From the NCBI GenBank assembly GCA_018820085.1, contig JAHJOV010000010.1, positions 12,179 to 76,178 of the forward strand: a DNA stretch of 64,000 nucleotides, written 5' to 3'. This stretch comes from Patescibacteria group bacterium. Lineage in GTDB: Bacteria > Patescibacteriota > Minisyncoccia > Portnoybacterales > UBA2143. Made by a program: the position numbers and the translations under genes. Of the stretch, positions 2,576 to 59,590 are shown piece by piece (within the stretch, counting starts at the first letter, position 1; each line of letters starts with the position of its first letter). Under the pieces are notes generated by a model. It searched no databases. It saw only the letters and a program-made list of their open reading frames with translations, and was not told where the DNA came from.

Positions 2576-3145
2576 ATGATTGCTTCACTTCAAGGTAAAA
2601 TAGAATTAAAAACAAATAAGTTCGCTATTATTAATGTAGGCGGAGTTGGGTATAAGGTTTTTTGTACTATTTCTGTTTTAGATAAGTTGGTTGTTGATCA
2701 AGAAATTAAGCTCTTTATTCACCTCTATATTAGAGAGAATATGTTAGATTTATATGGTTTTTTAACTCTTGAAGAATTGGAATTCTTTGAACTTTTGATT
2801 TCAATCAGCGGGATTGGACCTAAAGCTGCTTCGTCTATTCTTTCCGTTTCTTCAATTAAGGACTTAAAGGCTTCAATTGCTAGTGGTCAAGTTAATCTTT
2901 TAACTAAAGTTTCTGGAATTGGTAAAAAAATAGCTGAAAGAGTTATTTTAGAATTAAGAAGTAAGATATTAGTTTCTGGTTCAGATGTTCGTAAATTAGT
3001 TTCTGACGATGAGGCAGCTGATGCTTTAGTCAGCTTGGGATATTCTAATTACCAAGCTAATCAAGCTCTTAAACAAGTACCAGTTAAGGTAAAAGAAATA
3101 GAGAATAGGATTAAAGAGGCCTTAAGGATTTTAGGACAAAGTTAA
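2576..3145 (+). CDS. ruvA: Holliday junction branch-migration protein RuvA
   Basis: N-terminal OB domain (MIASLQGKI...INVGGVGYKV), central HhH pair (ISGIGPKAA ... VSGIGKKIAERV), C-terminal domain III. Length 189 aa. Confidence 0.85.
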   Translation: MIASLQGKIELKTNKFAIINVGGVGYKVFCTISVLDKLVVDQEIKLFIHLYIRENMLDLYGFLTLEELEFFELLISISGIGPKAASSILSVSSIKDLKASIASGQVNLLTKVSGIGKKIAERVILELRSKILVSGSDVRKLVSDDEAADALVSLGYSNYQANQALKQVPVKVKEIENRIKEALRILGQS

Positions 3146-3207
3146 AGGTCAGACCTCATTTTGCCGAACCTTCAGTAAAGGTTCGGACAAAATGAGGTCT
3201 GACCTTT
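3145..3207. repeat. Family-2 nested-palindrome REP/MITE-like element (aggtcNgacct / ttttgccgaacc ... ggttcggcaaaa / aggtcNgacct)
   Basis: Outer inverted repeat aggtcagacct / aggtctgacct and inner inverted repeat ttttgccgaacc / ggttcggacaaaa. Same architecture recurs at 13853-13913, 20802-20864, 38200-38263, 43449-43513, 43534-43595, 51164-51226, 54303-54364, 54386-54446, 59419-59493 and 59511-59590. Confidence 0.85.
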
Positions 3208-3214
3208 ATGAGTT

Positions 3215-4144
3215 ATGGATATTCAAACCAACAAAGAACAATGGAATCAATTTATAGTTGAAAATGAGGGTTGTTTTTTGCAATCTTGGCAATGGGGAGA
3301 ATTACAGGAATCTATGAATCGGAAAATTTGGCGGATTGAGACACAGGGTTTAAAAGGATTAGTTATTAAGCATGATATAAATTTAGGCAAAAACTATTTG
3401 TATTGTCCTCGAGGTCCAATTGGTCAAGGGGATTTTAATAATTTTATAGAACAAGTTAAAGAGATTGCTCATCAAGAGGGGAGTATTTTTTTTAAGATAG
3501 AGCTAGAAGAATTTAAGGTCCGACCTCAACAGAGGTCCGACCTTAAATTCTTCGTTAAATCCTCAAAACAAATTCAACCAGTTAAGACAGTAATTCTAGA
3601 TATATCTAAATCAGAAAAAGAATTATTAAAACAAATGCATCAGAAGACGAGATATAATATTTGTTTGGCTCAGAAAAAGGGAATTGAGATTAAAGAATCA
3701 GAGGAGGGGTTAGATGACTTTATCAGATTATTAAAACAAACTGCTAAGAGGGACAGGTTTTTTCTACATCCCCGAAAATATTATCAAAAGCTGTTAAAAA
3801 GAGGTCTGGCTAAGTTATTTTTAGCTTATTATCAGAATAAGGTTATAGCCGCCAATTTAATTTGTTTTTTTGGTCAAACAGCTACCTATCTCCACGGCGC
3901 TTCAGATTATAATCATCGTCAGTTGATGGCACCCTATCTTCTTCAGTGGCAAACAATTTTAAAAGCTAAAGAAAAAGGATTGACTCATTACGATTTTTGG
4001 GGTATTAATGAAGAAAAGTGGCCAGGTGTTACTCGATTTAAAAAAGGTTTTGGCGGTCAAGAAGTATCTTATCCGGGTAGCTTTGATTTGATTTTTCAAA
4101 AAACGTGGTATAAGGTCTATAATCTAGCGCGAAAAATTCTATGA
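3215..4144 (+). CDS. FemAB-family peptidyltransferase (peptidoglycan interpeptide bridge formation)
   Basis: FemAB-like motifs (YLHGASDYNHRQLMAPYLLQWQ..., HYDFWGI). Sits upstream of murE. Contains an in-frame 42-bp family-2 mini-repeat at 3509-3550. Confidence 0.65.
   Translation: MDIQTNKEQWNQFIVENEGCFLQSWQWGELQESMNRKIWRIETQGLKGLVIKHDINLGKNYLYCPRGPIGQGDFNNFIEQVKEIAHQEGSIFFKIELEEFKVRPQQRSDLKFFVKSSKQIQPVKTVILDISKSEKELLKQMHQKTRYNICLAQKKGIEIKESEEGLDDFIRLLKQTAKRDRFFLHPRKYYQKLLKRGLAKLFLAYYQNKVIAANLICFFGQTATYLHGASDYNHRQLMAPYLLQWQTILKAKEKGLTHYDFWGINEEKWPGVTRFKKGFGGQEVSYPGSFDLIFQKTWYKVYNLARKIL
3509..3550. repeat. In-frame palindromic mini-repeat inside the FemAB CDS (gaatttaaggtccgacctcaacagaggtccgaccttaaattc)
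   Basis: A perfect 42-bp palindrome-like element with the family-2 core (aggtccgacct). It lies inside ORF 3215-4144 and encodes EFKVRPQQRSDLKF without breaking the frame. Confidence 0.7.
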
Positions 4145-8026: not shown

Positions 8027-8044
8027 TATTATTTTTGCTCTCAG

Positions 8045-8102
8045 TGTCATTCCCGCGAAAGCGGGAATCCAGGTCTGGATTCCCAATCAAGTTGGGAATG
8101 AC
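8045..8102. repeat. Family-1 double-hairpin MITE-like repeat
   Basis: gtcattcccgcgaaagcgggaatccaggtctggattcccaatcaagttgggaatgaca. Same two hairpins as 1083-1141 in swapped order. Confidence 0.8.
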
Positions 8103-8113
8103 AAAACCAACAG

Positions 8114-11700: not shown

Positions 11701-13461
11701 ATGAAGAATTTAGAGATAGCTCAAATTTTTTATCAAATAGCTGAGTTTATTGAGATGAATGAAGTTTCATTTCGTTCCCGAGCGTATAATAAAGCGGCTC
11801 GGGTTTTAGAATCCATGGAAATAAATATTGAGGAGATATATAATCAAGGTGGGCTTAAGGAATTAAAAAAGATTTCTGGGATCGGTCAGGCTACTGCTCA
11901 GAAGATTGAAGAATTTATCAAAACCGGAAAGATTAAAACTTACCAAAAACTTAAAAAAGAATGTCCGGTTGATTTAGAAAAGTTAACAGCTGTTGAAGGA
12001 TTGGGCGCTAGAAAAATCAAAGTTCTTTATAAAGAATTAAGTATTAGAAATCTTAAAGATTTAGAAAAAGCAGCTAAGACAGGAAAGATAGGGGGATTAG
12101 AGGGTTTTGGTCAAAAAAGTGAAACAAATATTTTAGAAGCTATTGAGTTTGTTAAAGCTGGTCAAGGTAGATTTCCATTAGGGACGGCTTTATCCATAAT
12201 TAGACAAATAATTAATAAACTCGAGAAATTATCAGAAGTAAAAAAAATTAGTTCAGCTGGTTCGCTTCGGCGAATGAAAGAAACAATTGGTGATCTTGAT
12301 ATTTTAGTCATTTCTTCTCAACCAAAAAAAGTAATGAATTTTTTTGTTAAAATGCCTGAAGTGATTAAAATCTGGGCCCAAGGATTAACTAAATCGTCAG
12401 TTAGATTAAAAAATGGACTCGATTGTGATTTGAGAGTGGTTAAAAAAGAAAGTTTTGGGGCTGCTCTCCAATATTTTACTGGAAGCAAAGAACATAACAT
12501 TTTAGTTAGAAAAATAGCTAAGAAGAAGAAATTAAAATTAAATGAATATGGAGTTTTTCTAATTAAAGAGAAAACCCCGACGCAAGGTCGGGGTCCCGAC
12601 CACGAAATGCGTCGGGAGAGAATTGCTGGCAAAAGTGAGAAAGAAGTTTACAATGCTATTGGCCTACCATATATTGAACCAGAACTAAGAACTAATACTG
12701 GAGAGATTGAGGCAGCTTTAAATAATAAGTTGCCCGAATTAATTGGATATAAGGATATAAAAGGTGAGACTCATAGTCATAGTGATTGGAGTGATGGAGA
12801 CGAGAAAATTGAAGATCTTGCTAAAGCAGCTAAAAAAATGGGTTATCAATATATAGTTCTTACTGATCATGCTGGCTTTTTAAAAATCACTAATGCTTTG
12901 GATGAGAAACGGCTTCTAAAACAGATGGATGAGATAGATAAAATTAATAAAAAGCTTTCAGGAATTAAGATTATTAAAGGAGCTGAGGTTGATATTAAAG
13001 TTGATGGTAGCTTAGCTATTAAAGATGAAGTTTTAGCTAAGTTAGATTTTGTTTATGGAGCAATTCATTCAAAATTTAAGATGAGTAAAAAAGATATGAC
13101 TCAGAGATTAATTAGGGCTATAGAAAATCCTCATCTTGACGCTATTGCTCATCCAACCGGACGAATGATTCAGAAAAGGGAAGAGTATCTATTGGATTTT
13201 GAACAGATCTTAAAAGTAGCTAAGAAGAATAGAACCGCTTTAGAAATTAATGCTCATGCTAAACGTTTGGATTTAAAGGATATTTATATCCGTCAGGCCG
13301 TAGAAATGAGTGTTAAAATGGTCATTGGAACTGATGTCCATCATCTCAGCTATATGCCTATGATGGAATTAGGTATTGCTCAAGCTCGCCGGGGTTGGGC
13401 TAGTAAAAAGGATATTCTCAATACACGTTCTTTTATAGAATTTATTAAATATTTTAAATAA
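11701..13461 (+). CDS. polX: DNA polymerase X family protein with C-terminal PHP 3'-5' exonuclease domain
   Basis: Pol beta-like N-terminus (MKNLEIAQIFYQIAEFIEMNEVSFRSRAYNKAAR), HhH motifs (ISGIGQATAQKI, VEGLGARKIK), C-terminal PHP (THSHSDWSDG..., HP.GR). Contains a GC-rich palindromic in-frame insertion at about 12580-12625. Confidence 0.8.
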   Translation: MKNLEIAQIFYQIAEFIEMNEVSFRSRAYNKAARVLESMEINIEEIYNQGGLKELKKISGIGQATAQKIEEFIKTGKIKTYQKLKKECPVDLEKLTAVEGLGARKIKVLYKELSIRNLKDLEKAAKTGKIGGLEGFGQKSETNILEAIEFVKAGQGRFPLGTALSIIRQIINKLEKLSEVKKISSAGSLRRMKETIGDLDILVISSQPKKVMNFFVKMPEVIKIWAQGLTKSSVRLKNGLDCDLRVVKKESFGAALQYFTGSKEHNILVRKIAKKKKLKLNEYGVFLIKEKTPTQGRGPDHEMRRERIAGKSEKEVYNAIGLPYIEPELRTNTGEIEAALNNKLPELIGYKDIKGETHSHSDWSDGDEKIEDLAKAAKKMGYQYIVLTDHAGFLKITNALDEKRLLKQMDEIDKINKKLSGIKIIKGAEVDIKVDGSLAIKDEVLAKLDFVYGAIHSKFKMSKKDMTQRLIRAIENPHLDAIAHPTGRMIQKREEYLLDFEQILKVAKKNRTALEINAHAKRLDLKDIYIRQAVEMSVKMVIGTDVHHLSYMPMMELGIAQARRGWASKKDILNTRSFIEFIKYFK

Positions 13462-13838: not shown

Positions 13839-13852
13839 AGGTTTGTTGTGTA

Positions 13853-13913
13853 GAGGTCCGACATTATTTTGTCCGCACCTCAGCAGAGGTTCGGCAAAAT
13901 AAGGTCTGACCTC
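13853..13913. repeat. Family-2 REP/MITE-like element
   Basis: gaggtccgacattattttgtccgcacctcagcagaggttcggcaaaataaggtctgacctc. Confidence 0.8.
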
Positions 13914-13990
13914 GTTGTAGAAAACCGTTATTTCACGCGGTTTTTTTGATTGACCAAAGACACTTAAGGCGGTATCATTAAGGTAGAAAC
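13914..13990 (+). promoter_or_regulatory. Terminator-promoter cassette T1 (copy 1): hairpin aaaaccg...cggttttttt, then TTGACC-N17-TATCAT
   Basis: Stem-loop aaaaccgttatttcacgcggttttttt (13919-13948), then -35 TTGACC (13950-13955), 17-nt spacer, -10 TATCAT (13973-13978). It lies 40 bp upstream of the MTase gene at 14019. A second copy (~85% identical) is at 17376-17455. Confidence 0.6.
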
Positions 13991-14018
13991 CTAAAATTAA
14001 AGATTTGTTAATGTTAAT

Positions 14019-14885
14019 ATGAATAAAAAAGTATTTAAAAAAAATAATCTTTTTTCTCAAAAAGAAGTGACGAAAGCTGAAATCTACCTAGGTGATTCTT
14101 TAGAGGTAATAAATAATTTTAAATCAGACAGCATTGATTTAATTGTAACCTCTCCACCTTACGCTGATCAAAGAAATAGTACATATGGAGGAATTAAGCC
14201 CGATTGTTATGTTGAATGGTTCTTGCCAATTTCTAAAGAACTGTTAAGAGTTTTAAAACCCACAGGAACATTTATATTAAATATAAAGGAAAAAGTAACG
14301 AATGGTGAAAGACATGTATATGTTATAGAGTTGATTTTAGAAATGAAAAAACAAGGATGGTTATGGACAGAAGAATATATCTGGCATAAAAAAAATAGTC
14401 ATCCAGGAAAATGGCCAAATAGATTTAGAGATTCTTGGGAGAGATTATTGCAATTTAATAAAACAAAAGGATTTAATATGTATCAAGAAGAAGTTATGGT
14501 TCCTATGGGTGATTGGGCTAAAACAAGATTAAAGAATTTGAGCAAAACTGATATGAGAAGAGATGATTCAAGGGTTGGTAGCGGTTTTGGAAAAAATGTA
14601 TCCAAATGGATTGGAAGAGAAATGGCCTATCCAACAAATGTATTGATGTTAGCAACCGAAACAGGCAACAAAAACCATAGTGCTGTTTTCCCCAAGAGCC
14701 TTCCTACTTGGTTTATTAAATTATTTACAAAAAGAGGCGATACTGTATTAGATCCATTTTTAGGATCAGGAACGACCTTAATCACTGCTTTAGAGTTAGA
14801 TAGGAATTCAATCGGTATAGAAATACTTAAAGAATATTATGATTTAGCCACAGAAAATATAAATAAAAACATTCAACAATTATGA
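14019..14885 (+). CDS. Beta-class DNA methyltransferase (N4-cytosine or N6-adenine; motif IV SPPY precedes motif I)
   Basis: DLIVTSPPYADQ (motif IV) in the N-terminal part and VLDPFLGSGTTLITA (motif I, FxGxG) near the C-terminus. This is the circularly permuted beta-class order of the N6_N4 MTase family. Confidence 0.8.
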   Translation: MNKKVFKKNNLFSQKEVTKAEIYLGDSLEVINNFKSDSIDLIVTSPPYADQRNSTYGGIKPDCYVEWFLPISKELLRVLKPTGTFILNIKEKVTNGERHVYVIELILEMKKQGWLWTEEYIWHKKNSHPGKWPNRFRDSWERLLQFNKTKGFNMYQEEVMVPMGDWAKTRLKNLSKTDMRRDDSRVGSGFGKNVSKWIGREMAYPTNVLMLATETGNKNHSAVFPKSLPTWFIKLFTKRGDTVLDPFLGSGTTLITALELDRNSIGIEILKEYYDLATENINKNIQQL

Positions 14886-15694
14886 AAAATTTAAATTACA
14901 ATCAATTTAACAAATTTATTGAAAGCGATGTTATTCATCCTTTCTATCAGAAAAGATTATTAAGTCTCAAAAAAATTAAGTTAAATTACTTAATAAAAAG
15001 AAAAAATCCATATCTATTTAAAGCAAAAAATATTCAAACAGCAGGAGATTTTTCGAAATACTTATTAGATGCTTTTCTTTCATCACAAGAAGAAACATTT
15101 TTTGGAGATCTTCTAGAAAATCTTGCTATTCATATTTGTAAACAAATATTTGATGGGAAAAAAGCAGAACAGGTAAAATTTCGTAGTGTTGACCTTATCT
15201 TTAAAAGAGATAATAAACTGTATATTGTTGGCATTAAATCTGGTCCCAATTGGGGCAACAGCGATCAGCTAAACGCTATGAAAGGAAATTTCAAAAAGTC
15301 AAAAGAAACTTTAAAAAAAGAAGGCGAAAAACTAAGAATTATCAGTGTAAATGGTTGTATGTATGGGAAAGATAATAAACCACTCAAAAAGGATAAAAAA
15401 GATTATAAAAGAAACTATTATAAATTATGTGGTCAACAATTCTGGGAGTTAATATCTGCTGATGATAAACTTTATAAGAAGATAATTGAGCCATTGGATA
15501 AAGAAGCTAAAAAGAGAGATGAAGTATTTCAAAGTCTATATGTCAAAAAACTAAACGAGATGACTAAGGACTTAATAGAATTATTTTATACAGATAATGA
15601 TTTAGATTGGAATAAAATAATTGATTATGTTTCTAAAAAAGAAACTAAAAAGAGGAAGCTAAAAGAAAAAAGTAGTTCTAAAGCAAATAAATGA
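14882..15694 (+). CDS. Putative type II restriction endonuclease partner of the MTase (lysine-rich; possible PD-(D/E)xK core)
   Basis: Start overlaps the MTase stop (ATGA), indicating translational coupling. Possible nuclease core VDLIF...YIVGIKSG. No confident family match by eye. Confidence 0.35.
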   Translation: MKNLNYNQFNKFIESDVIHPFYQKRLLSLKKIKLNYLIKRKNPYLFKAKNIQTAGDFSKYLLDAFLSSQEETFFGDLLENLAIHICKQIFDGKKAEQVKFRSVDLIFKRDNKLYIVGIKSGPNWGNSDQLNAMKGNFKKSKETLKKEGEKLRIISVNGCMYGKDNKPLKKDKKDYKRNYYKLCGQQFWELISADDKLYKKIIEPLDKEAKKRDEVFQSLYVKKLNEMTKDLIELFYTDNDLDWNKIIDYVSKKETKKRKLKEKSSSKANK

Positions 15695-15778
15695 AAGATT
15701 TGAAGAAAATTTGGAAGTTGAAATGATTTGAAAAGAATAAAAAGCAGGAAACGAATAACTTCCTGCTCAAAAATTTTA

Positions 15779-16048
15779 TTATTTTTGTCTTTTGATAAAT
15801 TTTTTCATTGTGTTATTGACATTTTTACCGCCCACTTTTACTGTTCCAACTATCCGTCCATAAGAAATAGCATCTTCTGTGTAACTGATAGTTTTATTTT
15901 CAACTAGTTTTTCAAGCTCGTGCTTGGCAGCAGCACCGCCTTTTTGGTTTTTTTCTGGTGCATCAACGTTGGCGAGCCTAATGAACTTATTGTAGGGGAG
16001 ACGAACAGTGTCGCCGTCAATAACCTCTTTGACTTTAGCTTTAGGCAT
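15779..16048 (-). CDS. Small staphylococcal-nuclease (SNase/thermonuclease)-like protein
   Basis: 89 aa with SNase hallmarks EVIDGDTVRL...IRLANVDAPE...YGRIVGTVKVGGKNVN. These correspond to the Ca-binding DxDTx and catalytic DAPE region of thermonuclease. Confidence 0.5.
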   Translation of the reverse strand: MPKAKVKEVIDGDTVRLPYNKFIRLANVDAPEKNQKGGAAAKHELEKLVENKTISYTEDAISYGRIVGTVKVGGKNVNNTMKKFIKRQK

Positions 16049-16119
16049 AAATTTTATTAATTTATTATGAGTAAGGTTCGACTAAGCCTTTTTCGATGTT
16101 ATTCTATCAGATTGGGTTT

Positions 16120-16175
16120 CAATGTCAAGGATTCTTACTTATCAACTTGACAAGAATTCTTTACAAGGGATATAA
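16120..16175 (+). promoter_or_regulatory. Strong sigma70-like promoter TTGACA-N18-TATAAT flanked by direct repeats (candidate autoregulatory operator) for the HTH-Panacea gene
   Basis: TTGACA at 16146-16151 and TATAAT at 16170-16175. Direct repeats caaggattcttac / caagaattcttta bracket the -35 box. A GATATAAT extended -10 is present. Confidence 0.55.
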
Positions 16176-16184
16176 TCAATATAT

Positions 16185-16970
16185 ATGATTAAAGATCTAT
16201 TTAAAAAAATCAAGGCGTTACGTGAAGAAAATAATTTCTCACAGGGATATATGGCAGGAGAGCTTGGAATGTCTCGACCAACCTATACACAGATAGAGAA
16301 AGATGAACGGGAATTGACCATTTCAGAGGCGAAAAAAGTAGCGTCTATATTCAGCATGTCTTTAAAAGATTTGTTAAATGGCGGTAAAAAAGAAATTAAA
16401 GTTAATTTTGAGAAAAAAAAGAAAGTTAAAAAAACGGTTGAACCAAAGATGAGAATTATTATGACTCAAGCAAATGTAGAAAAATTTAAAGAAGTATTGC
16501 TATATATTTTAGAAAAAGCCGGGGCACGGCCAAATATTGGAGAGACCGCTATTTATAAACTGCTCTATTTTATAGATTTTGACTATTATGAGAAATTTGA
16601 AGAACAACTTATAGGCGCCAAATATATTAAAAATCATTTCGGTCCAACACCAATTGAATTTAAAAAAATAACTGATCAGATGATAGAAAAAGGTGAGATA
16701 GAAAAAGTCAAAAGCAAACATTTTCAATATGAGCAAAAAAAATACTTGCCGAGAAGGTCGGCTGACTTGAAAATTTTATCAGCTCAAGAAATTCAACATA
16801 TCGATGATGTCTTAAATCGTCTGTCGTGGAAAAACGCCAAGGAATTAAGTGAATATTCTCATTCGGATACTCCCTGGAGAGTTCATAAAATAGGCGAAGC
16901 AATTAGCTACGAAACTGTTTTTTATCGTGACGATGATCATTCAATTAGGAATTACGATGACGAACTTTAA
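16185..16970 (+). CDS. Fused HTH-XRE DNA-binding domain + Panacea (DUF4065/SocA-like) antitoxin domain protein
   Basis: N-terminus FSQGYMAGELGMSRPTYTQIEKDERELTISEAKKVASIF is a classic XRE HTH. The C-terminal domain ...ARPNIGETAIYKLLYFIDFDYYEKFEEQLIGAKYIKNHFGPTPIEF matches the Panacea/DUF4065 antitoxin signature (KLxKLLYfaD...G..i....Y.a...GPv). Confidence 0.6.
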   Translation: MIKDLFKKIKALREENNFSQGYMAGELGMSRPTYTQIEKDERELTISEAKKVASIFSMSLKDLLNGGKKEIKVNFEKKKKVKKTVEPKMRIIMTQANVEKFKEVLLYILEKAGARPNIGETAIYKLLYFIDFDYYEKFEEQLIGAKYIKNHFGPTPIEFKKITDQMIEKGEIEKVKSKHFQYEQKKYLPRRSADLKILSAQEIQHIDDVLNRLSWKNAKELSEYSHSDTPWRVHKIGEAISYETVFYRDDDHSIRNYDDEL

Positions 16971-17301
16971 GAGTACGATAGAGTTTCAAAAAGATTTCAA
17001 AAAATTATTCAAGAAATTTAAATCATTGGATAGCGATTTGAAAGAGTTTAAAAAAGTTTTAAATGAAGCACCTCTAGGAATTGGCAAACATTTTAATGTT
17101 ATTACGAAAACTGACTTTATATATATTGTTAAGGCCAGATTTTTTTGTAAAAATTTAAAGAAGAAAGATTTACGAATTATTTATTCCCATATTGAAGAGC
17201 AAAAAAAGATTGAATTTATTGAGATGTATTTCAAAGGGGATAAGGAAAGTGAAGATAGAGAAAGAATTAAAAAATACTTAAAATCTCTTTTAACGAGTTA
17301 A
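16957..17301 (+). CDS. RelE/ParE-superfamily-like toxin candidate, overlapping the Panacea gene by 14 bp
   Basis: In-frame ATG at 16957 gives MTNFKSTIEFQKDFKKLFKK...LGIGKHFNVI...ARFFCKNLKKKDLRIIYSHIEEQKKIEFIEMYFKGDKE. This resembles the RelE/YafQ pattern (F.K.FKKL...G..L.G.....YR..RIIY.I.....I.I..IGHR). The 3' overlap with the antitoxin is typical of TA operons. The ORF track gives an upstream alternative start at 16927. Confidence 0.4.
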   Translation: MTNFKSTIEFQKDFKKLFKKFKSLDSDLKEFKKVLNEAPLGIGKHFNVITKTDFIYIVKARFFCKNLKKKDLRIIYSHIEEQKKIEFIEMYFKGDKESEDRERIKKYLKSLLTS

Positions 17302-17375
17302 CGAGGTCGGACCTGAAACCTTGAATTCGCATTATTCTTCTAATAGCTTGGTTTAATAGAAAAAAATCCACGAGA

Positions 17376-17455
17376 CCTCGTCGTAGAAAACCGTTATTTC
17401 ACGCAGTTTTTTTGATTGACCAAAGGCATTTAAGAAGGTATTATTAAAGTATAAA
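17376..17455 (+). promoter_or_regulatory. Terminator-promoter cassette T1 (copy 2): TTGACC-N17-TATTAT
   Basis: About 85% identical to 13914-13990. -35 TTGACC 17418-17423, -10 TATTAT 17441-17446. Preceded by the motif cttggtttaatag, which is also found at 20938-20955. Confidence 0.55.
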
Positions 17456-17525
17456 TTCATTGTCATTCTGAGCCAGCAGACGAAGAATCTCATATAAATA
17501 ATTAAACTCTAGGAAATGTAAATAG

Positions 17526-17717
17526 ATGAAGAAGATTTATTGTAAAAATAAAATTTATTCTGAAAAAGAAATCAATAATATTGCGACTGTCAATAAAATG
17601 GTAACAGTTGACTGTTTAAAAGATGAAAATATGATTAGTGTTGAAAAAGAAGGCGAAGATTGTTTGTTTGAATTTACAAAAACAGGAGAAGATAAATTTT
17701 TATTAACATGGTCATAA
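17526..17717 (+). CDS. Small hypothetical protein leading RM module 2
   Basis: ORF track only. 63 aa with two Cys. Ends 1 bp before the MTase start. No recognizable HTH. Confidence 0.2.
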   Translation: MKKIYCKNKIYSEKEINNIATVNKMVTVDCLKDENMISVEKEGEDCLFEFTKTGEDKFLLTWS

Positions 17718-17718
17718 T

Positions 17719-19014
17719 TTGAAAATTGAGATTATGTTAAAACAATCAAGTACAATAAAATTATTTAAAAAAATCAAGATTGATTCCTCTTGGGCTTTTG
17801 CTGATAAAACTAGAAAAGATACTGCATATATCACTCATGGTTATCATCGCTATCCTGCAAAATTTATTCCGCAAATCGTTTCTCGATTAATTGAAAGATA
17901 TACTAAGAAAGGAGATTTGGTAGTTGATCCATTTGGTGGATGTGGAACAACTTTAGTTGAATCAAAAGTTAATGGTAGACAGTCAATCGGAGTAGATATA
18001 AATCCTGTTGCAGTTTTAATAGCAAAAGCAAAAAAAACTCCAATTAAACCCCTTAAATTAGAAAAATATTACTTAAAATTAAAAAATAAAATAGATTCTT
18101 TTAATAGAAATGCAAAAGTAAGAGTTCCTGAGCACATAAGGATTGATTATTGGTTTGGACCCGAGAAAAAAAAAGAGCTTGCTTTTCTTTTTTCTGAAAT
18201 TTCAAGAATAAAGGATCAGGACGTAAGAGATTTTTTCTATTGTGGTTTTTCAAATATTCTCAAAAATTGTTCAATCTGGCTTCAAAAAAGCAATAAACCA
18301 ACAAGGGATTTTGATAAAAAAATACCTGAACCATTTATGGTTTTTCTACGACAGATTAAAATGATGTTAAGGGGTAATCTTAATTTCTATAATCTTTTAC
18401 AAGAAAGAAAATTTTTAGAAAAGACTTGCGATGTATATTGCGCTGATGCAAGAGAGATACCGGTAAAAACTAATTCAGTTAACTTAATCGTTACTTCTCC
18501 ACCTTATGTTACGTCGTATGAATATGCTGATTTACATCAACTTACTGCTCTTTGGTTTAAATATACCAAAGATTTAAGTGATTTTAGAAAAAGGTTTATA
18601 GGTACTTATCATAATGGAGTAAAGGATATAGTTTTAAACAGCGAAATAGCAGAAGATATAAGACGAAGCTTAGAAAAAAAAGATAAGAAAACAGCTAAAG
18701 AGGTAAGTATATATTTTAGTGAAATGAATCATTGTTTTAAGGAAATGAAAAGAACATTAAAGAAAGGTGGAAGGTCTTGTATTGTTATAGGTAATACAAG
18801 TTTAAAGGGTATAAATATTTTAAATGCAGAGGTATTTACTGAACAATTACAAAATTTAGGGCTTAGAATTGATGATATCATCAAGAGAAAGATTCCTTCA
18901 AAGAATCTACCATCTACTAGAAATAAAAAAACAGGTCGTTTTGCAAAAGCAACGGATAAAAACAAAATTAACATTTATCCAACAGAATATATTTTAATAA
19001 CAAAAAAAGTATGA
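17719..19014 (+). CDS. Alpha-class DNA methyltransferase (motif I DPFGGCGTT ... motif IV SPPY)
   Basis: LVVDPFGGCGTTLVE (motif I) at about aa 65 and LIVTSPPYVTSYEY (motif IV) at about aa 260, with a long target-recognition region between. 431 aa. Confidence 0.75.
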   Translation: MKIEIMLKQSSTIKLFKKIKIDSSWAFADKTRKDTAYITHGYHRYPAKFIPQIVSRLIERYTKKGDLVVDPFGGCGTTLVESKVNGRQSIGVDINPVAVLIAKAKKTPIKPLKLEKYYLKLKNKIDSFNRNAKVRVPEHIRIDYWFGPEKKKELAFLFSEISRIKDQDVRDFFYCGFSNILKNCSIWLQKSNKPTRDFDKKIPEPFMVFLRQIKMMLRGNLNFYNLLQERKFLEKTCDVYCADAREIPVKTNSVNLIVTSPPYVTSYEYADLHQLTALWFKYTKDLSDFRKRFIGTYHNGVKDIVLNSEIAEDIRRSLEKKDKKTAKEVSIYFSEMNHCFKEMKRTLKKGGRSCIVIGNTSLKGINILNAEVFTEQLQNLGLRIDDIIKRKIPSKNLPSTRNKKTGRFAKATDKNKINIYPTEYILITKKV

Positions 19015-19703
19015 TTAAATTCACAAACAATTTTCAAGAAAATGTAGTTCCTCTTATCGAAGATTTTTCTAAAAAATATGGTAACGAACAAGTGCATAGA
19101 TATTTTTTTGAGATACTTACAAAAACAAAAGAATTATATCAACTAAATTGTGAAAAAGACAAAGGACAAAGTTGGCGAAATGAAAGTGGGACCATGCTGG
19201 AAAATTTAGTCGTCTATTTTATACAAGAAGAGGTTAAGAAGTTGGGATATGATTTGATTACTGATGATCAAATAAAAAAAGCATCGCAAGGTAATAAGAT
19301 AATAAGTAAGGTATATCGCAATATTGTTATTCGTTATGGTGATTATTCTATTTTGCCGGACGGCGATATTATTATTTATAACCCTAAAAATGGCAAAGTG
19401 TTATCTATTATTTCCTGCAAAAATTCTTTGCGTGAGCGATATGCACAAACTTTATATTGGAAACTTAAGCTTTCCTTAGATCCTATAACCAAACCGATTA
19501 AAATGTATTTTATTACTATTGATAAAGAAATTGGCAAAAAACCAGAACTTGATATTAATCCGAAAAATGGACCGACAAAACCAAGGATATTGTTAGAACA
19601 TGAAATGGATGGTGTTTATGTTGGCAGAGAATTACAGGATGCGAGCGATAAAGTAAAGGAGTTTGATAAATTCATTGATGATTTAAAAAAAATACTAAAA
19701 TAA
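19011..19703 (+). CDS. Putative type II restriction endonuclease of RM module 2
   Basis: 4-bp ATGA overlap with the upstream MTase. Possible PD-(D/E)xK-like core (ILPDGDIIIY...VLSIISCK). No confident family assignment. Confidence 0.3.
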   Translation: MIKFTNNFQENVVPLIEDFSKKYGNEQVHRYFFEILTKTKELYQLNCEKDKGQSWRNESGTMLENLVVYFIQEEVKKLGYDLITDDQIKKASQGNKIISKVYRNIVIRYGDYSILPDGDIIIYNPKNGKVLSIISCKNSLRERYAQTLYWKLKLSLDPITKPIKMYFITIDKEIGKKPELDINPKNGPTKPRILLEHEMDGVYVGRELQDASDKVKEFDKFIDDLKKILK

Positions 19704-19706
19704 TTT

Positions 19707-20096
19707 ATGGATACAAAAACACAAATTTTAATAATAATTATTTCCTCATTAATATCAGGCATCATTGGCGTCATTATCTCAATTATTTATCATAGAAAAT
19801 ATGAACAACATAAGATTAAAATTGATACATTGAAAAATTTTGTAGCATATAGATATAATACAAAAAGTGTTGAATTTATGAAAACAATTAATGAGATATT
19901 TATCGTATTTCGAAATTCCAAAGAAGTTATAAATACTTTAAATAAGTTACATGAATACATTTCTACAAATCAAAAAGATTTAGCAAGTGATTATCTTGTT
20001 AAACTATTTAAAGCAATGTGTAGAGATTTAAAAATAAATATCAATAAATTTGCTGATGACTCTATCTTCATTCGCACTTTTGACATAAAAGAATAA
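19707..20096 (+). CDS. Hypothetical small protein with N-terminal TM helix
   Basis: ORF track. TM segment ILIIIISSLISGIIGVIISIIY. Tightly packed between the REase candidate and the second MTase. Confidence 0.25.
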   Translation: MDTKTQILIIIISSLISGIIGVIISIIYHRKYEQHKIKIDTLKNFVAYRYNTKSVEFMKTINEIFIVFRNSKEVINTLNKLHEYISTNQKDLASDYLVKLFKAMCRDLKININKFADDSIFIRTFDIKE

Positions 20097-20099
20097 AGT

Positions 20100-20783
20100 A
20101 TGCAAATAGAATCAACAACGCTTTGGGATTTTCTGAGGCAAAATTATGGTGATAAGCCACATGGAAATAATAGATATAATAGCGTTACTCCGGCAATGAT
20201 AATTTGGAATTTATTGCAGAGATATACAAAAGAAGGTGATTTAGTCGTTGATCCTATGTGTGGAAGTGGAACAACTATTGATGTTGCAAAAGAATTAAAT
20301 AGAAAAGTAATCGGATATGATCTTAATATTGTAAGGCCTGATGTAATTAAAAACGATTCTCGTAGAATCCCGCTTCAAGATAATAGTGTTGATTTTGTTT
20401 TTATTGATTCGCCTTATTCTAATAATATTAAATATTCAAATGATGAAAAATGTATTGGTAAAATATCTTGTGAAAGTGAAGAATTTTATAATGAATTAGA
20501 AAAAACAGCAAGTGAAATTGCGAGAATTCTAAAACCAGATAAGGTGATGGGTTGGGTTATTGCTGATCAATGGATAAAGAGAAAATTTACACCTGCAGGA
20601 TTTTTAGTATGGCAGAGGTTGGAAAAATATTTTGAACCAATGGATATTGTCTGTTTGACAAGACATAATCAGACATCAAATACTGGTATTTGGCACGATA
20701 GAGCCAGACAGTATAATTTCTATTTAAGAGGGTTCAAATATTTGTTTATTATGAAGAAGCCAGAGGCGTTGTCCTTAAAATGA
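20100..20783 (+). CDS. Second, small DNA methyltransferase of RM module 2 (motif I ... DSPY)
   Basis: LVVDPMCGSGTTIDVA (motif I) and VDFVFIDSPYSNN (motif IV, D/S-PPY class variant). 227 aa. Confidence 0.7.
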   Translation: MQIESTTLWDFLRQNYGDKPHGNNRYNSVTPAMIIWNLLQRYTKEGDLVVDPMCGSGTTIDVAKELNRKVIGYDLNIVRPDVIKNDSRRIPLQDNSVDFVFIDSPYSNNIKYSNDEKCIGKISCESEEFYNELEKTASEIARILKPDKVMGWVIADQWIKRKFTPAGFLVWQRLEKYFEPMDIVCLTRHNQTSNTGIWHDRARQYNFYLRGFKYLFIMKKPEALSLK

Positions 20784-20801
20784 CGCCTATGGCAAACAAC
20801 C

Positions 20802-20864
20802 AGAGGTCGGACCTAAAAAGCGGAACCTTTACTGAAGGTTCCTACTTTTTGAGGTCGGACCTCT
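20802..20864. repeat. Family-2 REP/MITE-like element (variant inner arm aaaaagcggaacc/ggttcctacttttt)
   Basis: agaggtcggacctaaaaagcggaacctttactgaaggttcctactttttgaggtcggacctct. Confidence 0.8.
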
Positions 20865-20879
20865 AGGTCATTCTAGGGA

Positions 20880-20924
20880 TTAAATCTGGATTCCCGCTTT
20901 CGCGGGAATGACAAGGAAGTTAGT
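20880..20924. repeat. Partial family-1 repeat
   Basis: aaatctggattcccgctttcgcgggaatgacaagg. One hairpin of the family-1 element. Confidence 0.7.
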
Positions 20925-20976
20925 TATAATTATGAATCGCTTGGTTTAATAGGGGAAAAATGATAAAATAAGATAA

Positions 20977-24187: not shown

Positions 24188-24264
24188 GTGCCTGTAGCTC
24201 AGCCGGATAGAGCAACTCCCTTCTAAGGAGTAGGTCGCAGGTTCGAATCCTGCCAGGCGCACCA
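24188..24264 (+). tRNA. tRNA-Arg (anticodon TCT)
   Basis: 77-nt cloverleaf folded by hand: acceptor gtgcctg/caggcgc, D-arm gctc-agccggata-gagc, anticodon stem actcc/ggagt with loop cTTCTAa, T-arm gcagg-ttcgaat-cctgc, discriminator A, encoded CCA. Confidence 0.85.
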
Positions 24265-25719: not shown

Positions 25720-25770
25720 ATTTTTTTCCTTTGTTAATTGTTAATAATTGAAAAAATTTTCTTTTACCAA

Positions 25771-25869
25771 TTCAAAACCGCCAACTGATTTTTTCGCCCA
25801 AAATTCCGTTCAATTTGGTCGCCGAGCGAAGCGAGGCGAACCACCGAAATTTGACTTTTCCTTACTGGT
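25771..25869. repeat. IR-A, right copy (inverted)
   Basis: Perfect reverse complement of 24259-24357. The continuation of the homology (rc of 24357-24385) resumes at about 25985-26012, beyond IR-B. This suggests IR-B was inserted into a once longer repeat. Confidence 0.9.
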
Positions 25870-25955
25870 GCTCTATTCTGAAAATAGTTCGAACGCATTT
25901 TGCCGCCTGCGGCGGCGACGGCCAGCCCCCAAAAATTTGAGCGGCTTCGCCGCGA
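25866..25955. repeat. IR-B, left copy (90 bp, GC-rich; inverted copy at 34344-34432 with 2 differences)
   Basis: gtgctctattctgaaaatagttcgaacgcattttgccgcctgcggcggcgacggccagcccccaaaaatttgagcggcttcgccgcgatc. It contains the internal palindromes cgccgcctgcggcggcg and ctattctgaaaatag. Its GC content contrasts with the AT-rich surroundings. Confidence 0.85.
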
Positions 25956-26053
25956 TCTTAAAAACTGCCAAAGAACCTGTAAAAAACATCGGCTCAAACC
26001 ACATTTTGTAAAAGAAAATTTTTTCATTGCTAATTATTAAATTAACATTCAAT

Positions 26054-26755: not shown

Positions 26756-26775
26756 ATAAAAAAATTATTTGGATA

Positions 26776-35368: not shown

Positions 35369-35632
35369 GATAATTGTAAGAGAGTTTATTAGACTATATT
35401 TCAGTTTTAATAAAGTAGAACTTATAACCTCCCAACCCACTCAATTTTACTCTTGAATCTTTTATCATTTAGGTCTAGGATATAGAAGCTTGGATGTTCC
35501 TTAAGAAAAGTTAGAGCATCCTTGACTAGAGCGTACTGTGTCTAAATTAACAAACCTATTAGAGAATAAGAGAGGGTTTGTTTTTTGAACCTTAAAAATA
35601 TAGAGAAATGATTATAACAAAAGGAGGGTATC

Positions 35633-36667: not shown

Positions 36668-36745
36668 AAGAAATAAAGAGGATGGTGCAGAATGTGCCAT
36701 CCTCTTTACTTTATTATCTAGTTTGAGTATAATAAATCAATGTAT

Positions 36746-36821
36746 GGTGCCCATAGCTCAATGGTTAGAGCTCTAGTTTGTGGAACTAGCGACGAGGGTT
36801 CGACTCCCTCTGGGCACCCCA
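36746..36821 (+). tRNA. tRNA-His (anticodon GTG) with encoded G-1
   Basis: Acceptor gtgccca/tgggcac with an extra 5' G pairing the discriminator C. Anticodon stem ctagt/actag with loop tTGTGGa. T-arm gaggg-ttcgact-ccctc. CCA encoded. Confidence 0.85.
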
Positions 36822-37736: not shown

Positions 37737-38201
37737 ATGCCGACAATTCAACAGTTAGTAAAACGTCCAAGAAGAGTTTCTAGAAAAAAGCCAAAGGCAC
37801 CAGCCCTTTGGCGAAGTTTTAATTTATTAAAGAATAAACCTAAAAGAGCATCCTCTCCTTTTAAACGGGGAGTTTGTACTAAGGTTTATACGGTTACACC
37901 TAAAAAACCAAACTCAGCTTTGCGTAAAGTTTGTCGAGTTCGTTTAACTAATGGTATGGAAGTAACGTCCTATATCCCCGGTGAAGGCCATAATTTACAA
38001 GAACACTCAGTTGTTTTAATTAGAGGTGGACGAGTTAAGGATTTGCCTGGTGTTCGTTATCATGTTGTTAGAGGTATTTTAGATACTCAAGGAGTTGAGG
38101 GTCGTATGCAAAAAAGAAGTCGCTATGGCGCTAAGAAAATAAAGGCTGGTGGTAAGGCTCCGGCTAAAGAGGCTCCAGCTGAGGAGCCAGCCGAAGCATA
38201 G
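37737..38201 (+). CDS. rpsL: 30S ribosomal protein S12 with Ala/Pro/Glu-rich C-terminal tail
   Basis: [13 protein letters not shown]...[52 protein letters not shown]. Confidence 0.9.
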
Positions 38202-38263
38202 AGGTCGGACCTTATTTTGCCGAACCGCTGCTGAGGTGCGGACAAAATAAGGTCCGACCTCTA
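38200..38263. repeat. Family-2 REP/MITE-like element overlapping the rpsL stop codon
   Basis: agaggtcggaccttattttgccgaaccgctgctgaggtgcggacaaaataaggtccgacctct. Confidence 0.85.
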
Positions 38264-42842: not shown

Positions 42843-43508
42843 ATGAAGTTTATACTAGCTAAAAAATTAGGTATGAGTCAGATTTTTGACTCTAAAAATA
42901 AGGTTATTCCCGTAACCTTAGTTGAAGCTGGGCCATGTCCAGTAGTTCAAGTTAAAGATAATAGTGTTCAAATAGGCTTTGAAGAAAAGAAAGAAAAGCA
43001 TACCAATAAGGCTCAGCAAGGTCATTTTAAAAAAGCTGGTTTAGATAAGAATTTTCGATACTTAAAAGAATTCCCTAATAAAGATTTGAAAGTTGGGGAT
43101 GTAATTGATATTAGTATTTTGAATCCTGGTGAAAAAATTAGAATTAGTGGTATTTCTAAGGGAAAAGGATTTCAGGGCGTAGTTAAAAGACATGGTTTTT
43201 CTGGAGCTGACGCTACTCATGGAACCAAACACAACGAAAGAGCTCCTGGTTCAATTGGTTCAGCTTTCCCTGAAAGAGTTTTTAAAGGTAAAAAAATGGC
43301 TGGCCGAATGGGTACTGATAGAATTACAACTAAAGGATTAACAATAGTTGCGGTTGATAAAGAGAACAACACATTAGCTATTAAAGGAGCTGTTCCTGGC
43401 CGAAAAGGGACTTTATTAGAGATTATTGTTACTAAAGAAGTTGATGAAAAGGTCGGACCTGAAAAGCAGAAATCGGCATATGAGGTCAGACCTTCCCCAA
43501 AGGTCTGA
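42843..43508 (+). CDS. rplC: 50S ribosomal protein L3 (C-terminal ~20 codons and stop supplied by a family-2 repeat)
   Basis: L3 signature throughout. The tail ...KVGPEKQKSAYEVRPSPKV overlaps the repeat at 43449-43513. Confidence 0.9.
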   Translation: MKFILAKKLGMSQIFDSKNKVIPVTLVEAGPCPVVQVKDNSVQIGFEEKKEKHTNKAQQGHFKKAGLDKNFRYLKEFPNKDLKVGDVIDISILNPGEKIRISGISKGKGFQGVVKRHGFSGADATHGTKHNERAPGSIGSAFPERVFKGKKMAGRMGTDRITTKGLTIVAVDKENNTLAIKGAVPGRKGTLLEIIVTKEVDEKVGPEKQKSAYEVRPSPKV

Positions 43509-43513
43509 CCTCT
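43449..43513. repeat. Family-2-related composite repeat
   Basis: aaggtcggacctgaaaagcagaaatcggcatatgaggtcagaccttccccaaaggtctgacctct. Confidence 0.75.
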
Positions 43514-43533
43514 AAGGAATGTGGCATTAGAAT

Positions 43534-43595
43534 TAAGGTCGGACCTTGTTTTGCCGGACCTCTGCTGAGGTACGGACAAAACAATGTACGACCTT
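43534..43595. repeat. Family-2 REP/MITE-like element (gccggacc variant, ends in atgtacgacc)
   Basis: taaggtcggaccttgttttgccggacctctgctgaggtacggacaaaacaatgtacgacctt. Same variant as 54386-54446. Confidence 0.85.
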
Positions 43596-43619
43596 ATCAA
43601 TGTTGACCTTCAAGAAGCT

Positions 43620-51160: not shown

Positions 51161-51163
51161 TTC

Positions 51164-51226
51164 GAGGTCCGACCTCATTTTGTCCGAACCTTTACTGAAG
51201 GTTCGGCAAAATGAGGTCGGACCTCT
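51164..51226. repeat. Family-2 REP/MITE-like element sitting where rpmD (L30) would normally be
   Basis: gaggtccgacctcattttgtccgaacctttactgaaggttcggcaaaatgaggtcggacctct. Confidence 0.85.
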
Positions 51227-51237
51227 AAACCAGATTT

Positions 51238-51699: not shown

Positions 51700-51700
51700 T

Positions 51701-52984: not shown

Positions 52985-52985
52985 C

Positions 52986-54295: not shown

Positions 54296-54302
54296 TCTAG
54301 TA

Positions 54303-54446
54303 AGGTCCGACCTCAAAAAGTAGGAACCTTTTACTAAAGGTTCCGCTTTTTAGGTCTGACCTTAATTCTGAAGTCACGCAACCCGAGGTCGGACCTTATT
54401 TTGCCGGACCTCTGCTGAGGTACGGACAAAATAATGTACGACCTCT
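54303..54446. repeat. Two tandem family-2 elements (54303-54364 and 54386-54446) between convergent map and thrS
   Basis: aaggtccgacctcaaaaagtaggaacc...ggttccgctttttaggtctgacctt, and gaggtcggaccttattttgccggacctctgctgaggtacggacaaaataatgtacgacctct. Confidence 0.85.
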
Positions 54447-54455
54447 AGACTGTCA

Positions 54456-56219: not shown

Positions 56220-56220
56220 A

Positions 56221-59200: not shown

Positions 59201-59382
59201 GCTTTCATGCCTCTTTTTTTAGCTTCGCGATAGAACTCAACTAAGCCATACATAGAGCCATGATCGGTTAAAGCAATTGAAGACATTTTTAATTCTTGAC
59301 AGGTATCTAAAATCTGTCCGATTTTAGCCAGACCATCTAAAAGAGAATAATGAGAGTGAACATGTAAATGCGTAAACTTCAT
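56221..59382 (-). CDS. dnaE: DNA polymerase III alpha subunit
   Basis: PHP N-terminus MKFTHLHVHSHYSLLDG, polymerase core, OB fold. The ORF-track start at 59430 adds 16 codons that lie within a family-2 repeat; the canonical start is the internal Met at about 59382. Confidence 0.9.
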   Translation of the reverse strand: MKFTHLHVHSHYSLLDGLAKIGQILDTCQELKMSSIALTDHGSMYGLVEFYREAKKRGMKAILGSEAYITPYSMHQKRPNIDIKRHHLILLVKNAEGYRNLVKLTTRAYLDGFYYKPRIDKELLKKHSAGLIGLSACLAGEIPQAIIKGKPEEAEKLALEYQKIFGVGNFYLEIQHHPGLNEQEKINQVIIEIAKKNNIPLVATNDVHYVKAEDAEAQDVLMSIQTDKKVSDRDRITMKADDFSLRSTEQMTKDFKNIPEVIENTQKIVEKCNFEFELDKIHLPHFEVPNGKNPEEYLNELCQKGLKKRKFAEPHKEVLKRLNYELSVIKETGFASYFLIVADFVNWAKENGIVCGPGRGSSPGSIISYLLNITDVDPLKYDLLFERFLNPARISMPDIDLDFADDRRDEVIEYVSKKYGYDHVAQIITFGTMAARAAIRDVGRAMDYPYNFCDQIAKMVPFGSNLEKAIHQSPELHQNYESDENTKQLIDMAMQLEGVARHASTHACGVVITKDPLDQIVPTQHPTQNDENIISQYEMHAIEDLGLLKMDFLGLKTLTIIQNTLNQIKRLFQKKIDLATLPLDDKKTFKLFQEANTTAIFQLESNGMKKNLKDLKPTKFEDIIAMVALYRPGPIEFIPEFIARKHGLKEVEYLHPKLKPILENTYGVMVYQEQLMRIARDLAGFTLSEADILRKAVGKKIRKLLDEQKERMIQGMIKNEISPKIAKRIWQTVEPFAQYGFNKAHATCYALIGYWTAYLKTHYSVEFMAASMTSDQGDIERTAFLINECKRMNIQVLPPNINESNQNFSKASGKAIHFGLNAIKNVGHNVVKAIVEEREKNGNFKSIADFVERVNSKDLNKKSLESLIKCGALDDLNERNQLLFGVEQMLNLARETQKARQNGQTSLFGGESDVAMPSIKLPEVEPVSKKERLSWERELLGLYISEHPLQKYQKQLARTAYPCQGLSKKQVGHRVHVGGIINKIQKINTRTGQPMLFVEIEDMTGRIEVLVFPSVLEQTSTIWQEEKIVLVSGRLSDRDENLKILCDNVKVLE

Positions 59383-59418
59383 TGATAAATTTAGAGGTCT
59401 AGCCTTAAAAGGTTTTTC

Positions 59419-59590
59419 AAGGTCCGACATAGAAAAGTAGTGACCTTACCAGCAGGGAAGGTTACGCTTTTCAGGTCGGACCTTCAGAAAAACATCATGA
59501 CTTCAGAATTAAGGTCGGACCTATTAAGCGGAACCTTTATTAAAATAACTTTTTACTAAAAGTTACTACTTAATTATGTCCGACCTTATC
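59419..59590. repeat. Cluster of family-2 elements (59419-59493 variant and 59511-59590) between divergent dnaE and ligA
   Basis: aaggtccgacatagaaaag...caggtcggacctt, and aaggtcggacctattaagcggaaccttt...atgtccgacctt. Shares the junction motif agaattaaggtcggacct with 54366-54395 and 43520-43545. Confidence 0.8.

Follow-up and report, generated by a model that had tools for sequence, protein, structure and literature searches.

The window analyzed here, a 64-kb stretch with 34.4% GC, belongs to a metagenome-assembled genome (MAG) of a Patescibacteria member (assembly GCA_018820085.1, contig JAHJOV010000010.1). Along it are scattered short palindromic repeats of two families, family 1 and family 2, which a first-pass annotation had described as resembling miniature inverted-repeat transposable elements (MITEs) or repetitive extragenic palindromes (REPs). 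Pfam assignments bear out the gene junctions, namely RuvA/FemAB, VanZ/methyltransferase (MTase), S12/S7, L3/L4, S5/L15, MAP/ThrRS and DnaE/LigA. Throughout, S or L with one or two digits denotes a ribosomal protein, and L with three digits a locus used for comparison. The family 2 unit is a palindromic core, (G/A)AGGTCNGACCT(C/T); in the full element, two inverted cores enclose an inner hairpin whose asymmetric bulge is conserved, an arrangement resembling REP doublets that form hairpins (REPINs). An element was present at every coordinate that had been listed. The count of more than 20 copies applies to cores and not to elements: there are ten full family 2 elements (six of subfamily 2a and four of 2b), two mini doublets and two solo cores, plus two full copies and one half copy of family 1. 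What had been taken for a 62-bp copy at 43449 is a solo core with a mini hairpin. The family 2 features, and a palindrome in polX discussed with them below, are as follows.

3143–3208, plus strand: family 2a, REPIN-like, between the RuvA stop and the FemAB start; site empty in L112/L113 and L114/L115.
3506–3553, no strand: 48-nt perfect palindrome of two cores and a 4-nt loop, in frame in FemAB, encoding EEFKVRPQQRSDLKFF.
12577–12616, no strand: nested palindrome rich in GC, lying in frame within a 16-codon insertion of the PolX thumb; single-copy.
13851–13915, minus strand: family 2a at the VanZ/MTase junction, left border of a 7-kb restriction–modification (R–M) island; VanZ adjoins PilM in L114/L115.
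17304–17314, no strand: solo core AGGTCGGACCT, just past the stop of open reading frame (ORF) 16927–17301, between two R–M modules.
20801–20865, plus strand: family 2b, right border of the R–M island; A5/T5 tracts flipped relative to 2a.
38199–38263, plus strand: family 2a at rpsL/rpsG, with the rpsL stop TAG (38199–38201) at its edge; empty in L199 and L201.
43450–43513, no strand: solo core (43450–43460) and mini hairpin GAGGTCAGACCTT-CCCC-AAGGTCTGACCTC, jointly encoding the 19-aa C-terminal tail of L3 and its TAA stop.
43533–43597, plus strand: family 2a between rplC and ATG 43620, the true start of rplD; right core degenerate (ATGTACGACCT).
51162–51227, minus strand: family 2a at rpsE/rplO; empty in L201, other hairpins in L198 and L199.
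54300–54365, minus strand: family 2b in the map/thrS spacer; inner hairpin with T5 terminator-like on both strands.
54383–54447, plus strand: family 2a in the convergent map/thrS spacer; identical in L206.
59417–59486, minus strand: family 2b upstream of dnaE; holds the longest-ORF ATG 59430, the real start being 59382.
59509–59589, plus strand: family 2b with expanded loop, in the divergent dnaE/ligA spacer.

The 11-mer AGGTCNGACCT occurs in 21 exact copies, against none in 100 dinucleotide-preserving shuffles, and in 24 copies when up to one mismatch is allowed, 19 of these being extragenic. Copy numbers of TTTTGCCGAACC (6 versus 0.35 expected) and GTCATTCCC (5 versus 0.22) are likewise elevated. 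No copy of AGGTCNGACCT was detected in 927 kb from 80 control loci of unrelated bacteria; these came from a metagenome scan with ribosomal protein S3 and, at 42–47% identity, were useless for empty-site analysis and served as negative control only. In a sliding fold of the whole window, the repeat sites were the most stable local structures besides tRNAs and a few others, and the hairpins, folded as single-stranded DNA, reached z values of −8.9 to −12.8 relative to shuffles. An Rfam scan of the window at gathering thresholds returned only two tRNAs and no family for the repeats. Within the S10–spc operon stretch, spacers longer than ~10 nt are limited to S10/L3, L3/L4 and S5/L15, and repeats fill the latter two. 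Further copies lie past the window ends in the same genome (L206 and L108). With zero to two cores in 3–21 kb of relatives versus 0.33 per kb in the window, the earlier description of the genome as unusually repeat-rich holds against its close kin.

Short-read MAG contigs often end at repeats, and one comparison contig (L110) begins within an element, as might be expected if the repeats were collapsed or chimeric products of assembly. The chance of this is practically negligible, because four independent assemblies carry the same elements at identical sites: GCA_018821905.1, GCA_018826345.1, GCA_043825535.1 and one Logan assembly (L108, L109, L110 and L206), with four mismatches in 12 kb of overlap.

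Copies of family 2 were oriented by their internal asymmetry, a 2-nt versus a 3-nt internal loop. Read in this direction, they consist of the (G/A)AGGTCNGACCT core, an outer tract, 2 nt, GAACC, a loop, GGTTC, 3 nt, the complementary tract and the second core, and as single-stranded DNA the whole element forms a stem of ~30 bp. Subfamily 2a (3143, 13851 on the minus strand, 38199, 43533, 51162 on the minus strand and 54383) has the pattern TTTTG-CC-GAACC ... GGTTC-GGA-CAAAA, and subfamily 2b (20801, 54300 and 59417 on the minus strand, and 59509) the pattern AAAAG-CG-GAACC ... GGTTC-CTA-CTTTT, with the T4/A4 tracts flipped between the two and the 2-nt/3-nt internal loop kept in both. In an alignment of 12 copies (A3), the 30-pair stem was 88.8% paired, compared with 77.9% in shuffles, and changes were two-sided in 12 of the 30 pairs and one-sided in one pair only. 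Since palindromy is kept with almost no G–U intermediates, an element acting at the DNA level fits better than an RNA specific to one strand. On the right-hand side, the core often takes one and the same degenerate form, ATGT(A/C)(C/G)GACCT, a mark of descent from a common master. Both mini doublets comprise two cores and a 4-nt loop (3506–3553 inside FemAB and 43481–43513 in the L3 tail). A composite of mini hairpin, linker CTAAGGAATGTGGCA...CAGAATTA and full 2a element recurs at 43481–43597 of the window and at 14487–14552 and 21326–21425 of L206, its linker following the pattern CT(A/G)(A/C)GGAATG(T/C)GGC...CAGAATTA.

Orthologous junctions in relatives were compared. At RuvA/FemAB, the genes overlap or lie 2 nt apart without an element in L112/L113 and L114/L115 (FemAB 73% and 71% identical, respectively). 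L111, an 82% relative, carries another palindrome there, ~90 nt long (L111 1195–1295). In the closest relative, L200 (S3 90% identical), a 202-aa L3 ends in an ATGA overlap with L4 and no element is present; relative to it, the window contains ~175 extra nt, comprising 19 residues and a TAA for L3 followed by a full 2a copy, ahead of the conserved N-terminus of L4. The S12/S7 junction is empty in L199 and L201. That of S5/L15 is empty in L201 and holds a GTCATCCTGAGC hairpin in L198 (14860–14960) and a TTTAGGAGTCCAACTCC palindrome in L199 (15340–15400), and map/thrS carries a related AGGTACGACCT element in L198 and a classical terminator in L199. By profile search, full family 2 was found only in this genome and one related MAG, JAHJUH01. 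Because the orthologous junctions are empty or differently filled, the copies are lineage-specific insertions, gained at permissive sites; the empty sites support the proposal that family 2 had inserted into gene ends and FemAB. That the same junctions hold quite different palindromes in relatives may reflect recurrent landing sites or hairpins being favored there. As a separate observation, small accessory genes (cupin, HicA/HicB and PNPOx-like) lie within the str and spc ribosomal operons of L198 (213–539, 1096–1990 and 16907–17386), so these operons are not refractory to insertion in the clade.

Some copies extend into coding sequence. The peptide EEFKVRPQQRSDLKFF specified by the FemAB palindrome lies in a length-variable loop, at a net gain of ~5 codons. 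Alignment of 26 homologues confirmed this in-frame palindrome and located it, outside the window, only in the 82% identical relative, where it is mutated; the rest have short AT-rich or unrelated longer loops. The stop codon and 19-aa tail of L3 are situated within repeats, and the stops of S12 (TAG) and RuvA (TAA) coincide with an element edge. Repeats had been credited with donating both start and stop codons. This is correct for stops, with that of L3 inside a repeat and that of S12 overlapping an element edge, and wrong for starts, as the two starts assigned to repeats are ORF-calling artefacts: the conserved N-terminus of L4 begins at ATG 43620 (MKTPVYNQKGEE, matching MKQVMYNQKGEE in L200) rather than 43584, and that of DnaE at ATG 59382 (MKFTHLHVHSHYSLLDG) rather than 59430, with DnaE called as 1,053 aa in L206. 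The polX palindrome, previously regarded as a related in-frame insertion, does belong to a true insertion: compared with its L114 orthologue, PolX has 16 additional residues (LIKEKTPTQGRGPDHE). The Pfam thumb profile of 63 positions spans 76 residues, and the fold of the palindrome has z = −3.8 relative to shuffles. We rejected it as a member of family 2, to which no relation could be demonstrated: the palindrome is single-copy and its 10-mers recur nowhere else beyond chance, leaving kinship unproven.

Hairpins at gene ends could alternatively be RNA or transcription signals selected in place, such as terminators, mRNA 3′-end stabilizers or RNase III sites, rather than mobile DNA. We judge this unlikely, although several features point that way. 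All four 2b copies are at operon ends and the 2a copies inside operons; the 2b inner hairpins conform on both strands to the terminator pattern of a GC-rich hairpin followed by a T-run, whereas 2a, with its T-tract upstream of the hairpin, does not. In addition, L199 has its classical terminator where the window has family 2, and S5/L15 shows three different hairpins in three relatives. Selection in place is harder to reconcile with the unbiased orientation at co-directional junctions (4:2), the near absence of G–U intermediates from the stem, the presence of 2a inside the str, S10 and spc ribosomal operons, the in-frame copies in FemAB and the L3 tail, the closest relatives that do without the elements and the negative Rfam result. 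A terminator or RNA role is plausible and compatible with mobile DNA as a secondary, exapted effect: 2b might act as a terminator, and 2a, which within operons would form RNA stems of 28–30 bp, as an RNase III-type stem.

To follow the core into other genomes, one genome per species was scanned for two cores 35–55 nt apart, giving at least 107 loci. At least 38 of the 107 listed are labelled as Patescibacteria lineages (Saccharibacteria, Paceibacterota, Lloyd-, Chisholm-, Beckwith- and Nealsonbacteria), and many others are termite-gut spirochaetes. Inner sequences differ widely between genomes, and some loci contain tandem arrays. Clustering of the ORFs in the listed loci identified as the largest common cluster (16 loci) a protein of 180–250 aa that scored 29–48 bits against Pfam Y1_Tnp (cutoff 23) and had the REP-associated tyrosine transposase (RAYT; REP_Tyr_transpos) as its best NCBIfam match and Escherichia coli TnpArep (4ER8, E = 4.8e-4) as its sole PDB match. 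Its HUH motif is invariant, as is the Tyr of YIHxNP. No such gene was detected in the 80 control loci (927 kb). Among the matches listed, the core lies no more than 53 nt from both gene ends in 9 of the 16 RAYT loci and within 100 nt in a tenth locus; genes flanked on both sides include those of L014, L024, L025, L035, L041, L047, L058, L089, L095 and L202/L203, with the palindrome around the core extended differently by each genome. Homologues selected by protein similarity alone gave mixed support. In L202/L203, both sides are flanked by CTTGCGG-AGGTCNGACCT-CCGCAAG, and in L204/L205 by a drifted, non-palindromic core in inverted orientation; a third homologue is considered below. A profile of the protein matched 2,771 protein clusters, named at most ‘transposase’. 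Regarding the tandem arrays, their period is 16 bp in a MAG resembling the candidate phyla radiation (CPR), with an array directly downstream of the RAYT gene in L035 (2129–2251; compare L061 1851–1925), and 23–24 bp in termite-gut Spirochaetaceae (L003, L074 and other spirochaete loci).

A RAYT gene flanked by its own repeats is the defining arrangement of REP/REPIN–RAYT systems (PMC3116915, PMC3337134, PMC5581495). Because the core directly flanks RAYT-type genes in other genomes, family 2 is best read as REP/REPIN-type, and we consider it likely that its members are non-autonomous elements of this kind, spread by a RAYT acting on the folded single strand and persisting where tolerated. As an HUH/Y1 single-strand DNA endonuclease, the RAYT would recognize the folded repeat, presumably at the replication fork, cut it and rejoin it elsewhere. 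It would thereby spread, and probably also maintain, family 2, with copies surviving where they are harmless: between genes, at gene ends and in the variable surface loop of FemAB.

The size (62–80 bp) and hairpin shape of family 2 are also MITE-like, and TA borders both sides of 6 of the 10 full copies as well as the FemAB mini copy. Family 2 might on these grounds be a classical MITE, derived by deletion from a DDE insertion sequence (IS; IS630/Tc1-like, for instance), having terminal inverted repeats (TIRs) and TA target duplication and moved by cut-and-paste. We hold this to be very unlikely. TA...TA is itself palindromic and merely extends the inverted repeat, providing no evidence of duplication; the remaining copies have no TA borders; no DDE transposase was seen in the window or among the genes common to the 107 listed loci; and the gene that travels with the core encodes an HUH/Y1 enzyme. 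Divergence of the relatives that have empty sites is too great for an insertion joint to be defined. From the initial designation MITE/REP-like, ‘REP-like’ can thus be retained for both families, given the RAYT-flanking core of family 2 and the match of family 1 described below; ‘MITE’ in its usual sense (TIRs with target duplication, DDE-derived) finds no support.

A perfect interrupted palindrome that forms tandem arrays in other genomes (L035 and L061) could also be a double-stranded DNA site for a host protein, the repeats being clusters of sites for a regulator, a nucleoid protein, an R–M enzyme or DNA uptake; two R–M systems and type IV pilus genes are present in the window. This, too, is highly improbable. 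The half-site centers are just 6 bp apart, atypical for helix–turn–helix (HTH) dimers; GGNCC arises only in versions with N = C or G; uptake sequences are non-palindromic and frequent in genes, as opposed to the mostly extragenic cores; and the sole gene that consistently adjoins the core is the RAYT. The core was specifically rejected as the target of the EcoO109I-like and BsaWI-like enzymes of the island, since none of its versions fits RGGNCCY or WCCGGW. There was no sign of a phage origin either: a scan of viral contigs for the doublet pattern gave only two matches.

Several observations weigh against the RAYT-based interpretation of family 2. A RAYT gene was found neither in the window nor in its flanks of 6.8 kb (L108, upstream) and 10 kb (L206, downstream), ~81 kb in total, so RAYT activity on these copies, now or formerly, can only be inferred and the cognate enzyme is unproven. 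The NCBIfam scores of the cluster protein, 28–42 bits, fall well short of the equivalog cutoff of 80. Requiring two cores could have enriched the pattern scan for RAYT flanks, and in L209, the third homologue selected on protein sequence, the only copy beyond the gene itself is a degenerate one downstream, with no exact core. A GTAG or CGTC tetranucleotide at one repeat end is given in a passage of PMC3733652 as a feature of most REPs; no conserved tag of either type adjoins the core in the window copies, where the preceding bases vary (TTAA, ATAG, GTAG, ATTA, AGTA, TTCG, CCAG and CCCG), as they do between genomes. Finally, element positions are identical in four assemblies of the lineage, with no sign of ongoing movement.

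The RAYT genes of L014, L024, L041, L047, L202, L204 and L209 contain their own core in frame, ~22 codons before the HUH motif and always in the same frame, encoding G-P/R-T-S. L204, with flanks that have drifted to AGGCCCGTCCT, also reads AGGCCCGTCCT in its internal copy. We tentatively raise the possibility that AGGTCNGACCT serves as recognition core for a RAYT clade that is widespread in Patescibacteria and has so far gone undescribed, and whose internal core co-varies with the flanks. Such co-variation would mean that the enzyme recognizes its own gene, for self-regulation or self-mobilization. If true, repeat and enzyme would constitute a long-lived system, kept vertically and horizontally in ultra-small symbiont genomes, from which dispensable DNA is otherwise lost.

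In family 1, two inverted hairpins form a doublet, which occurs in both orientations across three sites in the window.

1081–1139, minus strand: family 1 doublet; hairpin resembling the Neisseria Transformation Sequence (NTS) at 1112–1139 (matching its consensus at 26/28 positions), paired with a variant hairpin in inverted orientation.
8045–8103, plus strand: family 1 doublet, reverse complement of the 1081 copy except for the central loop; 8045–8072 is 27/28 to NTS and fits the Ssn-related motif (SRM).
20866–20913, minus strand: half or degenerate family 1 copy abutting family 2b; 20886–20913 is 27/28 to NTS and fits SRM.

Its hairpin TGTCATTCCCGCGAAAGCGGGAATCCAG is identical to the NTS consensus CGTCATTCCCGCGMAVGCGGGAATCYRG in 27 of 28 positions, and two of the three sites match the degenerate SRM pattern, compared with 0.06 matches expected per random window (consensus and pattern from PMC11893778). 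SsnA, a nuclease of the GIY-YIG type, cuts NTS hairpins as single-stranded DNA, and the motif frequently stands on the flanks of ssn genes (PMC11893778). By sequence, family 1 thus belongs to the NTS/SRM hairpin class recognized by Ssn GIY-YIG single-strand nucleases, and an Ssn may act, or may once have acted, on these copies. A point against this is that no GIY-YIG/Ssn gene was detected in the window, in L108 (6.8 kb of upstream sequence) or in L206 (10 kb of downstream sequence). A 79-aa GIY-YIG protein of L114 was considered as partner and rejected, its gene being unflanked by the motif and without a tblastn match in the window. Hairpins resembling family 1 occur in other CPR loci, often next to cores of the family 2 type.

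The 7-kb island (13839–20976), absent between VanZ and PilM in L114/L115, encodes an N6/N4 MTase with an EcoO109I-like endonuclease, an HTH-SocA/Panacea protein, an MTase with a BsaWI-like endonuclease and a third MTase; family 2 copies stand at both borders and a solo core between modules. Elsewhere, in the region 24188–36818, a perfect 99-nt inverted repeat (24259–24357 and 25773–25871) encloses the gene of a large serine recombinase, adjacent to a tRNA, and a second inverted repeat of ~96 nt (25864–25959 and 34342–34436) spans 8.4 kb with a reverse transcriptase gene (30011–31015, minus strand). Possible readings of this region are an invertible or an integrated element, or else a retroelement.

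Systems of the REP/RAYT and NTS/Ssn kinds are already known, and the elements are in this respect ordinary, although we found no description of either in Patescibacteria: no paper in the library searched linked REP, RAYT or MITEs with the group, the RAYT surveys consulted did not name these phyla, and the text of PMC11893778 does not name Patescibacteria. Literature matches to AGGTCNGACCT concerned only unrelated eukaryotic or viral contexts. The unusual aspects, both outside the window, are the perfect 5-N-5 core common to many lineages and the in-frame core inside the RAYT gene. As CPR/Patescibacteria genomes are ~1 Mb and highly streamlined, dense hairpin repeats in ribosomal-protein operons, protein tails and an enzyme loop are unexpected baggage. 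Placing them with REP/RAYT and NTS/Ssn would extend two nuclease–hairpin systems to a phylum for which we found no report. It would also explain why many CPR contigs end at these sequences, and account for gene-calling faults such as the wrong longest-ORF starts of rplD and dnaE and the repeat-derived L3 tail. The common core would offer a simple marker for the cognate RAYT and for repeat–enzyme co-evolution in uncultured symbionts.

Among known systems, the REPs, bacterial interspersed mosaic elements (BIMEs) and REPINs of Enterobacteria and Pseudomonas, with their RAYT (TnpA_REP), come closest. Family 2 is likewise short, palindromic and mostly extragenic, consists of inverted doublets that form one long hairpin and builds BIME-like composite clusters of mini hairpin, conserved linker and full element. 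The associated gene has its own repeats at both ends, its HUH/Y1 enzyme has E. coli TnpArep 4ER8 as the only solved relative, and repeat and enzyme co-vary (L204). In contrast to the genus-specific imperfect palindromes of REPs, the core is a perfect 5-N-5 palindrome shared by many Patescibacteria lineages and some spirochaetes and showed no GTAG or CGTC tag; the proteins are longer (220–270 aa) and far below the NCBIfam RAYT equivalog cutoff, and the host is a CPR genome of ~34% GC. Family 1 resembles the Neisseria NTS/dRS3 and SRM repeats with SsnA in its 28-nt hairpin match and occurrence in both orientations. It differs in pairing this hairpin with an inverted variant hairpin (stem ATTCCCAA/TTGGGAAT) as a 57-nt doublet, in its low number of three copies in 64 kb and in the absence of an ssn-type gene from the window.

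Two further systems invite comparison. Rickettsia palindromic elements (RPEs) are 100–150 bp long and inserted in frame in protein genes. Family 2 is similar in that FemAB, an enzyme conserved in other respects, carries an in-frame palindromic repeat within a variable loop, and that repeats supply L3 with a C-terminal tail without destroying the gene; its inserts measure 33–48 nt and are presumably unrelated in sequence. Correia elements, Neisseria MITEs with TA duplication and 26-bp TIRs thought to derive from a DDE-type IS, are, like family 2, small repeats that lie between genes and form hairpins, often bordered by TA and transcribed along with neighboring genes; family 2 differs in travelling with an HUH/Y1 enzyme.

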